Origin: Candidatus Eremiobacteria bacterium
GTDB lineage: Bacteria; Vulcanimicrobiota; Vulcanimicrobiia; Vulcanimicrobiales; Vulcanimicrobiaceae
Reading direction: 5' to 3'
DNA: 64,000 nucleotides
Assembly (NCBI GenBank): GCA_963737065.1
Contig: CAVTRC010000001.1
Span: 384,001 to 448,000 of the forward strand
Below, piece after piece: positions 52,618 through 57,764 of this stretch. The notes beneath the pieces are model-generated. The model worked only from the letters and a program-made list of their open reading frames with translations. It was not told the origin of the DNA and ran no database searches. Each line of letters opens with the position of its first letter. Positions within the stretch are counted from its first letter, which is position 1. Made by a program: the position numbers and the translations under genes.

Positions 52618-53633
52618 CAATGCTTCTGCTCGGAATCGAGACGTCGTGCGACGATACCGCGACGGCGGTCGTGCGCGACGGCCGTTCGGTGCTTTCGAGC
52701 GTCTCGACGAATCAGGATGAATTCCACGCGAAATACGGTGGCATCGTGCCCGAGATCGCGAGCCGCCAGCACGTTGCGCTCCTCTCGGCGGCCGTAGCCG
52801 ATGCGGTCGAACGCGCGAACTTTACGCTCGACGACTTGGACGGGATCGCCGTAACGCGCGGACCCGGCTTGATCGGCAGTCTCGTCGTCGGCGTCGCGGC
52901 GGCGAAAGCGCTCGCGTTTGCGCTCGACAAACCGCTCTACGGCGTCAATCATCTGCACGGACACATCTTCGCGGCGTTTCTCGATCGTGACGAACCGATT
53001 CCATTTCCGTTTCTCGCCCTGCTCGTTTCCGGAGGCCACTCGCAACTCGTTGATGTCCGTTCACCGATCGACATGCGCATCATTGGCCGCACTCGCGATG
53101 ATGCGGCGGGTGAAGCGTACGATAAAACGGCGCGGCTTCTCGGTCTGTCTTATCCCGGCGGACCGCAACTCGACCGGCTTGCGCGCGAAGGTAACCCGAA
53201 AGCACATCCGTTCCCGCGTCACCGTCCCGATCCGGGAAGCCTCGATCTTTCGTTCTCGGGCCTCAAAACATCGGTTCGCTATTTTCTCGAATCCGACGAA
53301 GGCCGACGGGCAAAACCCGAAGACGTCGCCGCATCGTTTCAAGCGGCGGTTGTCGATGTGCTCCTCGCGCGCGTTTCGCGCGCATTTGAAGACGGCGCGT
53401 ACAACGCGCTCGTGATCTCGGGCGGCGTCGCGGCGAATTCGGCGCTGCAAGAGGCGATCCGGTCGTGGAGCAAACGCAACAGCATCGCGGCCTTCATTCC
53501 GCCGCCGAAATACTGCACCGACAATGCGGCGATGATTGCCGCCGCGGCATATCATCAGCGAGAGGTCGTTGAAGTGGACGCGCTTACACTCTCGGCCGAT
53601 CCCAATCTGCCCTTTGAAATTCGCGCCGCTTAG
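52614..53633 (+). CDS. tsaD: tRNA N6-adenosine threonylcarbamoyltransferase
   Basis: LGIETSCDDT, GGIVPEIASRQH, HLHGH, VSGGHS, DDAAGEAYDK, CTDNAAMI. Confidence 0.96.
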   Translation: MTMLLLGIETSCDDTATAVVRDGRSVLSSVSTNQDEFHAKYGGIVPEIASRQHVALLSAAVADAVERANFTLDDLDGIAVTRGPGLIGSLVVGVAAAKALAFALDKPLYGVNHLHGHIFAAFLDRDEPIPFPFLALLVSGGHSQLVDVRSPIDMRIIGRTRDDAAGEAYDKTARLLGLSYPGGPQLDRLAREGNPKAHPFPRHRPDPGSLDLSFSGLKTSVRYFLESDEGRRAKPEDVAASFQAAVVDVLLARVSRAFEDGAYNALVISGGVAANSALQEAIRSWSKRNSIAAFIPPPKYCTDNAAMIAAAAYHQREVVEVDALTLSADPNLPFEIRAA

Positions 53634-53668
53634 CAACCCTTTTCGCGCAACGTGGTATATCTACAGTC

Positions 53669-54142
53669 ATGATGACGCTACGCCCCGCTTTGATCGCACT
53701 CGCCGCAGCGGCTGTTCCGTTGCTTGCTTTCGCGCAGACGAGCCTGCCGCAGTCGACGCAAGATCGTCAGCAAATTCAAAACTTGCAGTTTCAGGCGAAT
53801 CTGCCGGGAACGAGTGCGGCGGAGCGCACGCAAATCGAGCGTCAGATCAGCCAATTGCAGTACCAAATCAACACGCGCGCGCCGGTGCAGCCGATGCCCA
53901 CGCTGACGCCGTCGTGGAACGGCGGACCGCTATTCAGCGGCGGAAATCTTCCGCAGCTGACCGCGAACCCAACCTTCGCGCCGCTCTCGCCGACGATTTA
54001 CGGCTCGTGCGATTCCGACCGCGCGGTCATCTCGTATTTGACGCAACAGATTTCGCTGCCGACGACGACCCGGCAGGAACGTCTCTACGATCAAAGCCAG
54101 AGCGCGGAACTCCAAAAAGATTTGCGCGCGAAGGGTTGCTAG
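53669..54142 (+). CDS. Secreted Gln-rich hypothetical protein
   Basis: Signal peptide ending AFA; two Cys; fills gap between tsaD and the met leader. Confidence 0.65.
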   Translation: MMTLRPALIALAAAAVPLLAFAQTSLPQSTQDRQQIQNLQFQANLPGTSAAERTQIERQISQLQYQINTRAPVQPMPTLTPSWNGGPLFSGGNLPQLTANPTFAPLSPTIYGSCDSDRAVISYLTQQISLPTTTRQERLYDQSQSAELQKDLRAKGC

Positions 54143-54144
54143 TC

Positions 54145-54173
54145 TTGACGCCGCCAAACGCTCGTGATAGCCT
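54145..54173 (+). promoter_or_regulatory. Sigma70-type promoter giving a leaderless transcript at 54181
   Basis: TTGACG(54145-50)-N17-TAGCCT(54168-73) with extended TGn; ATG begins after a 7-nt gap. Confidence 0.8.
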
Positions 54174-54180
54174 TTGCGCA

Positions 54181-54264
54181 ATGTTTACTGACGTCGCGAT
54201 GATGTGCCCGATGTGCTGCATGCAAATGCGCGCGGCGCGGGCCGTCGTGGAGCGAACCGTGTAG
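54181..54264 (+). CDS. Putative Met/Cys-rich attenuator leader peptide MFTDVAMMCPMCCMQMRAARAVVERTV
   Basis: 27 codons; 8 of codons 7-16 are Met or Cys; lies between the promoter and a strong hairpin upstream of hom-metY-metX. Confidence 0.85.
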   Translation: MFTDVAMMCPMCCMQMRAARAVVERTV

Positions 54265-54284
54265 TACGCGGGATCGAATCGCAA

Positions 54285-54324
54285 ACGACGCCCCTCGCCG
54301 CAATGGCGAGGGGCGTCGTCGTTT
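54285..54324 (+). terminator. Attenuator hairpin
   Basis: ACGACGCCCCTCGCC-gcaat-GGCGAGGGGCGTCGT perfect 15-bp stem followed by CGTTT (weak U-tract). Confidence 0.8.
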
Positions 54325-54362
54325 CACTCCTCGCTTTCCCGTCTCAAAAGGAGGCATGAGGA

Positions 54363-55517
54363 ATGGTATCCACCGCGGGCATCGCGTTGCTCGGCTGCGG
54401 TACGGTCGGTGCATGCGTCGCCGAGCGTTTACTCTACGAGCGCGATGTGATCGAACGCCGCAGCGGCGTGCACTATGAACTGCGCGCAATTGCAATCCGC
54501 GACGCGACGAGAACACGGATCGAGTCGATCGACACGCGACTCTTCACGACCGATCCGCGTGCAATCGTCGAAGATTCACGCGTCGATATCGTGATCGAGT
54601 GTATCGGCGGCACGGCACAGGCGTGTGAACTCATCGAGATCGCGCTGGAACGCGGCCGGTCCGTCGTGACGGCGAACAAGGATGTGCTCGCGACGCAGGG
54701 TCCACGCCTGCAGGCTCTCGCAGCGGCGCGCGGTGCGGGTCTGCGTTACGAAGCCGCGGCGTGCGGCGCGATTCCCGTCGTACGCATGCTTTATGACGCG
54801 CTCGCAGGCGATCGTATCGACGCGCTTGCCGGCGTCGTGAACGGGACGTGCAACGCAATTCTCTCGGAGATGGACGCCGGCTCGGAATTCGCTGAAGCCG
54901 TCGCCGCGGCGCAAGCGCGTGGCTATGCCGAAGCGGACCCATCGAACGATATCGACGGCGTGGACGCCGCGCACAAGCTCGCGGTATTGATGCAGCTCGC
55001 GTTCGGTCTGGCGGTCATCTCGCCGCGCATTCGCCACACCGGGATCGCCGGCGTAACAAAACGCGAAATCGCGCGCGCGCAAGCGCTCGGCTATCGTATT
55101 CGCTTGATTGCCGCAGCAGCACGCTGCGACGACGGCGCGTTCGCCGGCGTCGCGCCGTTGCTCGTCCCGCGCGATCACCCGTTCGCAACGCTCAGCGGAC
55201 CGGAAAATATCGTCCGCGTCGCCGCCCGCGATGCCGGTCCGCTCACTATGCGCGGGCGCGGTGCCGGCGGACCGGCAACCGCGTCGGCGATCCTCGGCGA
55301 CGTCGTTTCGTCGCTGCGCGCGCTCGGCGAGCGTCGCGACGTTGCACGTCAGCTGCGTGCGCTTGAACCGGCGCTCGACGTTGCCCCGATCTTCACCGGT
55401 CTTCCGCGTCATCCGGAACTCCCACGCTACGCGTTGTGGGATGACACACTACTTGATGCTCCCGTCTCGCACGCTCAAGCGTGCGTTGTTATGACGGGGA
55501 AAGGAACACGGCACTCA
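54363..55517 (+). CDS. hom: Homoserine dehydrogenase (no evident ACT domain); reads in frame into metY in this sequence
   Basis: [65 protein letters not shown]; true 3' end uncertain. Confidence 0.88.
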
Positions 55518-56813
55518 ATGAGCATTACGCTCGAAACGGACCACCCGCAATCGTTCGATACCGTCGCGGTGCACGGCGGTCACAACGGCGATCCGGCGAC
55601 GAAATCGCGCGCCGTTCCGATCTATCAAACGACCTCCTATCTGTTCGATTCAACGGAACACGCGGGCAAGCTCTTCGCACTGGAAGAGTTCGGCAACATC
55701 TATACGCGCATCAACAATCCGACCACCGACGTATTCGAACAACGCGTTGCGGCGCTCGAACGCGGTGCGGGTGCGCTCGCGGTCTCCAGCGGACAAGCCG
55801 CCGTCGTGTATTCGATCCTCAATCTCGCGAAGAACGGCGACCATCTCGTCAGCAGCGCATCCCTGTACGGCGGAACCTATAACGCGTTCACGCACACGCT
55901 CAAACGCTTCGGCATCGAGGTCAGCCTCGTCGACTTCAACGATCCCCATAGCGTCGAAGCGGCAATTCGTCCGAATACGAAAGCGCTCTTCGCGGAAACG
56001 ATCGGCAACCCGAAGATCGACGTGCTCGATGTGGAACTCTATGCCGAACTCGCGCACCGCCATGGTCTTCCGCTGATCGTCGACAACACGCTCGCAACAC
56101 CATACCTGTTGCGTCCGATCGAACACGGCGCCGATATCGTCGTACATTCGGCGACGAAATTCATCGGCGGGCACGGTACCGCGATCGGCGGCGTAATCGT
56201 CGACGGCGGGACGTTCGACTGGACCATCAATCCGCGCTTCGCCGAGTTCATCGAGCCCGATCCGTCGTACCACGGATTGCAATACGCCGCCGCGTTCGGT
56301 AATATCGCCTACATCGTCAAAGCGCGCGTTCAACTCCTGCGCAACATCGGCGCCGCGCTCTCTCCGTTCAACGCATGGCTTCTCTTGCAAGGCATCGAAA
56401 CGCTCGGTCTGCGCGTAGAACGTCACAGCAGTAACGCGCTCGCCGTCGCCGAGTTCCTCTCGCAGCACCCTCGAGTGACAAGCGTCGCATATCCGGGTTT
56501 GCCGGGTGATCCCGCACACGAACGCGCGCGTAAATATCTGCCGAACGGCGCCGGAGCCATCGTGACGTTTAGCGTTGAGGGCGGCGAGCGTGAAGCAAAA
56601 AGCGTCATCGATCGCCTCAGGCTCTTCTCTCTACTCGCAAACGTCGGTGATGCAAAGTCGCTCGTCATTCACCCTGCGAGCACGACGCATCAGCAACTGA
56701 GCGACGCCGAACGCCTGCAGAGCGGCGTCGACGCATCGACGGTCCGGCTCTCGGTCGGCATCGAGGACATCAACGATATCATCGCCGACTTGCGTCAAGC
56801 GCTGGCGGACTAA
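55518..56813 (+). CDS. metY: O-acetylhomoserine aminocarboxypropyltransferase (sulfhydrylase)
   Basis: [51 protein letters not shown]; own AAAGGA RBS-like sequence before ATG 55518. Confidence 0.93.
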
Positions 56814-56816
56814 CCG

Positions 56817-57764
56817 TTGCGCGAGCTGACGATCGGCATCGGATCGCTTCGGCTGCACGATGGCACGCTGCTGCACGACGTGCAGCAGCGTGTGACGATG
56901 TATGGCTCTCCATCTGCCGCTCGCGACAACATCGTGCTCGTCAATCACGCACTGACCGGTTCGAGCCGGGCGGCGGAGTGGTGGCCCGGCATCGTCGGCG
57001 AAGGTGCGCTCTTCGACCCGTCCGGCTGGTGTATCATCGGCATCAACGTACTCGGCAGTTGCTACGGCTCGACGTGGACGCCGCGCGTCACCGTTGCAGA
57101 CATCGTGTGCGCGCAAGCGCGCGTTCTCGATGAACTCGGGATCGAGTCGGCCGCCTTTGCCGTCGGTGGATCGCTCGGCGGCATGCAGGCACTGCAATGG
57201 GCGCTCGATTTTCCCGGCCGCATCAAAAACGCGATCGTCATCGGCGCGCACGACCATCACAGTGCAATGGGAATCGCGCTCAACGCGATTCAACGTGAAT
57301 GTCTTCAACTCGATCCGGTTCGCGGTTTACGTACGGCCCGCAAACTCGCAATGCTGACCTATAAATCCGAGGAACTCTTGAACGCCCGCCACGGCCGTAA
57401 CCCGGATCGCAACGATCGGTCGCGTTTCGACGTCGAAGGGTACCTGGATTTGCAAGCGGCGCGCTTCATCGGACGGATGGACGCCCGCACCTACACTACA
57501 TTGACGCACGCCATGGATTCATTCGACGTCCGCAGACGATCGCTCCATGGACCGCGCGTCACGTTCGTCGGAATCAGTTCCGACTGGCTGTTCCGCCCGC
57601 ACGACGTGCGTGCAGCGGCCGAAAAATTCGGTGCTGACTATATCGAGCTAGAGACGGACCACGGGCACGATGCGTTTCTCGCCGAATCGGGCCGCCTCGC
57701 CGAGCTCCTCCGGCCGGCGATTCATATTCGCAAAAGCGCCGGAACGAGCGTTATCGCGCCGTAA
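56817..57764 (+). CDS. metX: Homoserine O-acetyltransferase
   Basis: NHALTG, NVLGSCYGST, GGSLGGMQAL, SSDWLF, HGHDAFL. Confidence 0.92.
   Translation: MRELTIGIGSLRLHDGTLLHDVQQRVTMYGSPSAARDNIVLVNHALTGSSRAAEWWPGIVGEGALFDPSGWCIIGINVLGSCYGSTWTPRVTVADIVCAQARVLDELGIESAAFAVGGSLGGMQALQWALDFPGRIKNAIVIGAHDHHSAMGIALNAIQRECLQLDPVRGLRTARKLAMLTYKSEELLNARHGRNPDRNDRSRFDVEGYLDLQAARFIGRMDARTYTTLTHAMDSFDVRRRSLHGPRVTFVGISSDWLFRPHDVRAAAEKFGADYIELETDHGHDAFLAESGRLAELLRPAIHIRKSAGTSVIAP

Follow-up and report, generated by a model that had tools for sequence, protein, structure and literature searches.

Methionine genes are generally controlled by MetJ/MetR, by SAM riboswitches or by T-boxes. In the classical attenuators (trp, his, thr, leu, phe, ilv) a short ORF rich in codons of the pathway is combined with an antiterminator at its 3' end and a GC-rich terminator followed by a U-tract (10.1101/834739, PMC4007540). 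For cysteine, translational attenuation has been shown in mycobacteria where, according to the accessible part of the report, the Cys tract of leaderless poly-Cys sORFs such as Ms5788A pairs with the SD without any terminator being involved (10.1101/834739). In the Rhodobacterales, uORFC-8-2, a predicted Cys-codon uORF with an intrinsic terminator, precedes the synthetase gene cysS (PMC8632094). With respect to methionine, metL of Streptomyces lividans (SLIV_29928) is a leaderless leader of 29 aa with mixed Met and Cys codons in front of metNIQ; its authors detected no intrinsic terminator of the typical form and, in the text available, termination stays unclear (PMC8079986). Deide_09379 of Deinococcus deserti is a putative leaderless leader of 15 aa with Met codons before metG, encoding methionine-tRNA ligase (PMC4007540, Table S9); its TSS was mapped at the ATG and the accessible sections describe no switch. 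As far as the papers are accessible, no conserved RNA element is reported before actinobacterial methionine operons (PMC1262725) and no Met leader is found in PMC2965389. Our literature search, which covered the open literature and few subscription journals, yielded putative cases only, no tested Met leader-peptide attenuator and nothing on the leaders of the lineage described below. The original prediction for the present locus, made from the DNA alone, had known of no characterised mixed Met/Cys leader; this holds in so far as the accessible texts report no functional test, but S. lividans metL and D. deserti Deide_09379 are already annotated.

Here we analyse a stretch of 64,000 nt from a soil-type Candidatus Eremiobacteria bacterium (the window), in which a hom-metY-metX operon is preceded by a leader that we consider, with a probability of about 0.85, to be a conserved ribosome-mediated leader-peptide attenuator reading charged Met-tRNA and, in second place, Cys-tRNA. 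Judged from its sequence, it appears to unite the testable structural features of classical attenuators, namely a Met/Cys-enriched ORF, a terminator and a mutually exclusive antiterminator. New would be a variant of classical attenuation, the mechanism class being textbook knowledge and putative Met leaders being in print; unlike the classical cases we propose the sensing of Met together with Cys, a leaderless start, an additional SD-hiding module and use before several sulfur operons. As far as the cited reports are accessible, the leader shares its presumably leaderless mixed Met/Cys ORF before methionine genes with metL (PMC8079986), the presumed leaderless ORF and Met codons with Deide_09379 (PMC4007540), the ORF with Cys codons plus terminator with uORFC-8-2 (PMC8632094) and the presumed leaderless start, sulfur amino acid codons, regulon-like spread and SD sequestration with the mycobacterial sORFs (10.1101/834739). 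It differs in that metL precedes an importer, Deide_09379 and uORFC-8-2 precede synthetase genes and uORFC-8-2 contains Cys codons only. Unlike in Ms5788A, the control codons lie in the middle of the ORF upstream of terminator and antiterminator, Met dominates and the SD pairs with a separate segment 5. A complete and covarying Met-sensing candidate with pathway-graded codons makes methionyl-tRNA attenuation directly testable. Such a sensor must separate the supply of elongator Met-tRNA from initiation, which also needs Met, and the whole lineage appears to run its sulfur metabolism through ribosome-read leaders.

Results and Discussion

Leader ORF, promoter and downstream genes

The 5' part of the leader contains the following elements:

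54145..54173, forward strand: promoter-like site with a -35 TTGACG, 17 nt and an extended -10 (TG-n-TAGCCT), from the letters and the conserved layout
54181..54264, forward strand: leader ORF of 27 codons, presumably leaderless, from the letters and the ATG spacing in relatives, with an inferred TSS
54199..54228, forward strand: control codons 7-16 with five Met and three Cys, from the letters and a comparison of ORFs across the genome

In the window, TTGACG (54145-54150) and TAGCCT (54168-54173) are separated by a 17-nt spacer with TGa at its 3' end; the ATG at 54181 lies 7 nt past TAGCCT, and the TAG stop codon ends at 54264. A generic scan did not call this promoter, the -10 box matching at 3 of 6 positions, and our assignment is therefore based on conservation. 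The same layout recurs in 55 leaders, with a spacer of 17 nt in 35 and of 18 nt in 20, and in 51 of these 55 script-found leaders the ATG likewise follows 7 nt past the -10 box. This fixed spacing fits a leaderless start at which +1 would fall on or next to the leader AUG. Met occupies codons 7, 8, 11, 14 and 16 of the leader peptide and Cys codons 9, 12 and 13, which makes the ORF the densest Met/Cys window among the 10,954 ORFs of the whole genome that start with ATG and comprise 20-32 codons. Within 10 codons, best Met+Cys counts of 8, 7 and 6 are each reached by a single one of these ORFs, and a count of 5 is reached by 12; those counting 7 and 6 are presumably nested starts of the leader ORF itself at codons 7 and 8. 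The promoter TTGACG-N17-(TGa)TAGCCT, the 27 codons and the Met and Cys counts in codons 7-16 are thus as originally predicted, and promoter and ORF do lie within the predicted element (54145..54264), but the element runs on beyond the ORF to 54362.

A TTG-started ORF of 242 aa (53536-54264), which shares the stop codon of the leader and overlaps the upstream gene, was considered and taken as spurious. Directly upstream lies a Gln/Pro-rich ORF of 157 aa (53669-54142), probably secreted, with no Pfam match and no usable Atlas match. No terminator was called between this ORF and the leader promoter.

Downstream of the leader, three features are of relevance:

54363..56813, forward strand: hom, coding for homoserine dehydrogenase, continued in the same frame by metY, coding for an OAH/OAS sulfhydrylase and with an ATG of its own at 55518; only in this assembly do the two form a single ORF
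55460..55499, forward strand: hairpin at the hom/metY junction, adjoining the metY SD, from a predicted fold
56817..57764, forward strand: metX-type homoserine O-acetyltransferase, the best hits being MetX models below their cut-offs

The three homocysteine genes expected behind the leader, hom, metY and a metX-type gene, are indeed present, except that hom and metY form a single ORF of 816 aa in the window, whereas in the congeners examined the ORF stops after about 376 aa. This results from one extra base near 55477 relative to the congeners, which may represent a genuine fusion or else a mistake of the assembly. The junction hairpin is predicted in the window and in five of the six relatives folded; L006 folds otherwise, and in L007 the stem is changed. 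Going by these folds, it probably serves translational coupling. As a side observation, the 5' strand of the hairpin in this junction region (55456-55518) resembles the 23-nt module described further below. Two other Cys/Met PLP enzymes of the window genome are encoded within operons and have no leader.

Conservation of the leader

Relatives of Hom occur in 271 of the 385 genomes of the class, from which 90 hom loci were taken, 30 first and 60 chosen for genus spread, a sample biased to the better hits. A Met/Cys-rich leader is present at 57 of these 90 loci, 53 found by script and four by eye (L012, L030, L090, L103). The original prediction had named the lack of such an sORF in relatives as the finding that would speak against it; its attenuation reading instead gains support, at the level of sequence, from the conserved sORF as well as from a terminator and an antiterminator which it had overlooked. 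The script, which skipped one locus containing N, detected the promoter-ATG-sORF layout at 55 loci, the ORF being Met/Cys-rich at 53 and Thr/Ile-rich at two; L005 ends at a contig edge. Distributed over 24 genus handles, the 53 Met/Cys leaders have open frames of 23-29 codons whose residues other than Met and Cys drift, the position of the sORF and its codon content being kept. L030 and L089 represent another family, and L013 (with leader) and L024 (without) stem from unpublished genomes on which no claim rests. A contig search for related loci yielded one close and 16 distant ones, and the nearest Atlas cluster of Hom is mostly made up of Vulcanimicrobiota.

The leader of L029 is Thr-rich by eye. 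Thr/Ile-rich leaders of the same build stand before other hom genes at L029, L091, L092 and L090, the last of which mixes Met, Thr and Ile.

At 29 of the 90 hom loci no such leader is present. Among these are hom genes located within operons, 11 hom-metY loci whose Hom is longer, as well as L060 and L073, where the promoter directly adjoins the SD module. The hom-metY operons devoid of the Met/Cys leader (L016, L017, L019-L021, L023-L028) encode a longer Hom with a C-terminal extension and carry a short conserved plain leader or N-terminal stretch. In the four proteins scanned, the extension gave no Pfam match, and the idea of an ACT domain replacing the leader at these loci was dropped, as none of the four showed an ACT match.

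No Rfam match near the gathering score was obtained over 53000-55500, which agrees with the predicted absence of a SAM riboswitch or T-box from the leader, and no family reached threshold over 14 related loci. Searches of the 95%-complete genome whose positive controls responded detected no SAM-I, T-box or MetJ; SAM-II and SAM-I/IV gave no Rfam match in the leader, their genome-wide searches having no responding control. It is barely conceivable that the ORF is untranslated and the leader a riboswitch or a protein-bound RNA with an incidental codon bias: the 23-nt module does resemble a binding site, but an ATG that does not vary and keeps its spacing to the -10 box and the open frame retained in all 53 leaders, together with the lack of any Rfam match, speak against this.

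Terminator and antiterminator

A ribosome-read leader of the kind we favour would operate on the following segments:

54234..54248, forward strand: segment 2, consisting of codons 18-23, which provide the antiterminator strand and complement the 5' arm of the terminator, from the fold and own-partner tests
54285..54324, forward strand: segments 3:4, a terminator hairpin of 15 bp (54285-54299 with 54305-54319) with a short U-tract (54322-54324), from the fold and covariation
54327..54335, forward strand: segment 5, alternative partner of the freed terminator 3' arm or of the SD-side strand, from predicted pairing

Segment 2 complements the terminator 5' arm at 13 of 15 positions. Folding energies amount to -40 kcal/mol (z -2.2) for the antiterminator (54226-54304) and to -34.5 kcal/mol (z -7.1) for the terminator hairpin (54285-54319). 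The U-tract of the window genome is weak, with 4 T in 8 nt and a run of 3 U, and is one of the weakest, a score of 4 T being shared by 4 of 53; a generic scan did not call the 3:4 terminator in the window. At least 5 T in 8 nt are found in 49 of the 53 leader terminators. Behind the terminator, a further hairpin covers the SD of hom, the SD pairing with the segment 5 side.

In an alignment comprising 36 of the 53 leaders, the terminator covaries with 51 double changes (0/500 shuffles). In a fixed-register MAFFT alignment the antiterminator (66% paired, 302/500 shuffles) shows no column-wise covariation: it combines a conserved core with a distal half that is shifted by indels. For the 4:5 helix, 83.9% of the cells are paired and there is no covariation over shuffles (143/500). 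In a register-free test, 46 of 53 leaders show stronger pairing of the ORF with the terminator arm of the same leader than with foreign arms on average (-24.8 vs -20.9 kcal/mol). Restricted to the variable half, the same holds for 47 of 53 leaders and, with one leader per genus, for 20 of 24 (0/2000 permutations each); as the loci are related and were hand-picked from the best hits, these tests overstate independence through kinship. The best duplex between ORF and terminator arm begins at codon 17-21 in 51 of the 53 leaders, and 298 of their 320 Met/Cys codons are located 5' of the antiterminator strand.

Modelled across the 53 leaders, the pairing of segment 3 with the ORF depends on the codon in the ribosomal A site, amounting to 0.83-0.85 at codons 10-14, 0.58 at 16, 0.36 at 17 and 0.0 at the stop codon. 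At equilibrium the model favours the terminator at all ribosome positions (0.89-0.98) once segment 4 is present, so that the switch must be kinetic. With no ribosome, modelled antiterminator pairing is 0.77 in the window genome and 0.56 on average, as compared to 0.85 with a stalled one; the antiterminator thus forms even without a ribosome, and the model does not clearly reveal a protector (1:2) hairpin that would favour termination in the absence of translation.

Sequence, conservation, pairing potential and terminator covariation are observed; the course of events that we propose on top of them involves a presumed TSS as well as presumed translation, stalling and termination. Transcription would begin on or beside the AUG of the leader. 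A ribosome would load on the leaderless 5' end. If Met or Cys ran short, the ribosome would stall in codons 7-14 and leave segment 2 free, which could then pair with the emerging terminator 5' arm and allow RNA polymerase to read into hom-metY-metX. If both were plentiful, the ribosome would cover segment 2, the terminator would form and transcription would presumably end, and any message reading through under these conditions would keep its SD hidden. Somewhat better than an even bet, though put forward less firmly, is the assumption that the terminator 3' arm, once released, can capture segment 5 and weaken the SD hairpin, by which translation would open as well. In relatives, the same cassette with adjusted codons may serve cysH, ssuA and metB-type operons.

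The module over the SD

The hairpin covering the SD contains a conserved unit:

54333..54355, forward strand: separable 23-nt module whose 6-bp stem contains a bulged U and closes a conserved 10-nt loop, hiding the SD (GGAGG, 54350-54354), from genome pattern matches

Predicted SD accessibility is 0.06 with the terminator and 0.43 with segment 3 blocked, an increase seen in 36 of the 47 leaders that contain the 23-nt module; in the window leader the predicted gain is small (0.05 to 0.21). These values bear on the alternative that the ribosome acts as sensor in the same way while the output in the window genome is mainly translational, the 3:4 hairpin setting nothing but the hiding of the SD. 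The U-tract of 3 U, the uncalled terminator and the higher SD accessibility in the antiterminator state would be compatible with it, as would the mycobacterial poly-Cys leaders which, in the accessible part of the report, act on translation (10.1101/834739). However, the stronger T-tracts of 49 of 53 homologues, the small gain in the window and the loci L053, L057, L058 and L068, which keep leader and terminator but have no SD module, render it unlikely, and we continue to favour attenuation through the terminator.

An exact match to the module is present in 142 of the 385 genomes, five unpublished ones included, while a reversed-pattern control gave 0. Within its stem, pairing amounts to 97.7% and changes are few. 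The loop is conserved with no visible partner, and the unpaired bases are nearly invariant before four unrelated sulfur genes. Among 118 metagenome matches, 52 precede hom, 27 ssuA, one cysH and one a metB-type gene; of the remaining 37 unassigned ones, six are cut by the contig end with a terminator upstream and 31 are probably due to chance. Twenty hand-picked genome matches away from the listed hom hits are found before ssuA (10), metB-type genes (6), cysH (2) and hom (2). L108 was discarded as a probable chance match to the module pattern. The fold of the module is a plain hairpin between variable flanking sequences, and the module is separable from the attenuator in both directions: it persists without one at L060, L073, L138, L174 and L175, and in genus g42 the attenuator before hom is kept and the module lost, the latter standing before ssuA instead.

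Our best guess from these patterns is that the module may control the translation of sulfur genes as an operator or a relay. That the leader receives two inputs, a Met/Cys-tRNA attenuator being joined by an independent 23-nt sulfur-regulon operator (a repressor site or a sensor of SAM or another sulfur metabolite), is a tentative idea which we consider rather doubtful. With the SAM/SAH riboswitch the module shares an SD helix (PK) in which five to six pairs are combined with a single extruded U, but according to the accessible part of the description this riboswitch needs an enclosing P1 stem-loop and an H-type pseudoknot (PMC7367207), both of which the module lacks, just as it lacks an Rfam match. 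A pseudoknot of the module loop with the start-codon region, inspected by eye, was not supported, as the downstream bases vary and only the three bases of the start codon are pairable. A genome scan for a trans-acting RNA complementary to the module returned only scattered near-matches. At L110 and L257, cysH follows the module with no ATG, GTG or TTG at the expected distance from the SD; judged from the sequence, a non-canonical start codon is possibly used there.

Codon content and regulated genes

The leaders before other sulfur genes were collected independently of their codons, the ssuA and metB-type (cystathionine gamma-synthase) loci via the 23-nt module and 12 cysH loci via the protein. 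A Cys-rich leader precedes cysH at six of these 12 loci by script and at three more by eye. Within codons 2-17, metB-type leaders contain on average 3.6 Met and 0.4 Cys (7 peptides), hom leaders 3.5 Met and 1.9 Cys (85 peptides), ssuA leaders 2.7 Met and 2.6 Cys (21 peptides) and cysH leaders 0.9 Met and 3.75 Cys (8 peptides, one taken at an upstream start). Codon content thus appears to track the regulated gene, being mainly Met for metB-type genes, mostly Cys for cysH and both for hom and ssuA. This pattern would agree with the chemistry: an enzyme consuming Cys for Met synthesis may be expected to answer to Met only and sulfate reduction to Cys, and sulfonate import as well as direct sulfhydrylation to both.

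The same figures argue against Met codons being mere passengers in a leader where only Cys codons, or general sulfur starvation, count. Cys is present in 84 of 85 hom leaders and Cys attenuation has an experimental precedent, as far as the report is accessible (10.1101/834739), yet metB-type leaders hardly contain Cys, cysH leaders show the reverse, and the cysH leader of G015 (L273), in the same operon region as hom-metY (L010), also contains MM. We therefore regard a Cys-only leader as very unlikely.

The peptide itself might act instead, either by binding metals or thiols or through a nascent chain that arrests on a metabolite, for instance SAM. Clusters of Cys and Met can bind metals, and plant CGS1 exemplifies arrest of a nascent chain on such a metabolite. 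Apart from the metal-binding capacity of Cys/Met clusters, the fact that segment 2 is kept in one reading frame in 44 of the 53 leaders would be in line with an acting peptide. Nevertheless, five leaders read segment 2 in a different frame, the sequence other than Met and Cys drifts freely, and codon content follows the pathway product, which makes this explanation highly improbable. A ribosome sensing charged Met-tRNA and Cys-tRNA remains our preferred reading.

Leaders of the same build occur elsewhere in the window genome. A WWW leader with terminator precedes DAHP synthase (G000:C2:217345, L129), and a Cys-rich leader with terminator precedes cysH-cysI (G000:C1:1930211, L130; L270-L281). 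In addition, a Tyr-rich leader (YYY) with terminator is located before the gene of a haem-oxygenase-like iron redox protein (G000:C1:2355602, minus strand, L131; L282-L289), which weakly matches PF14518 below the cut-off. CADD-type enzymes, which consume their own Tyr, would be a conceivable lead here. The Tyr leader is present at all eight distinct loci for which upstream sequence was examined, seven of this genus and one of another, and is, on the strength of its sequence, a candidate tyrosine-sensing attenuator.
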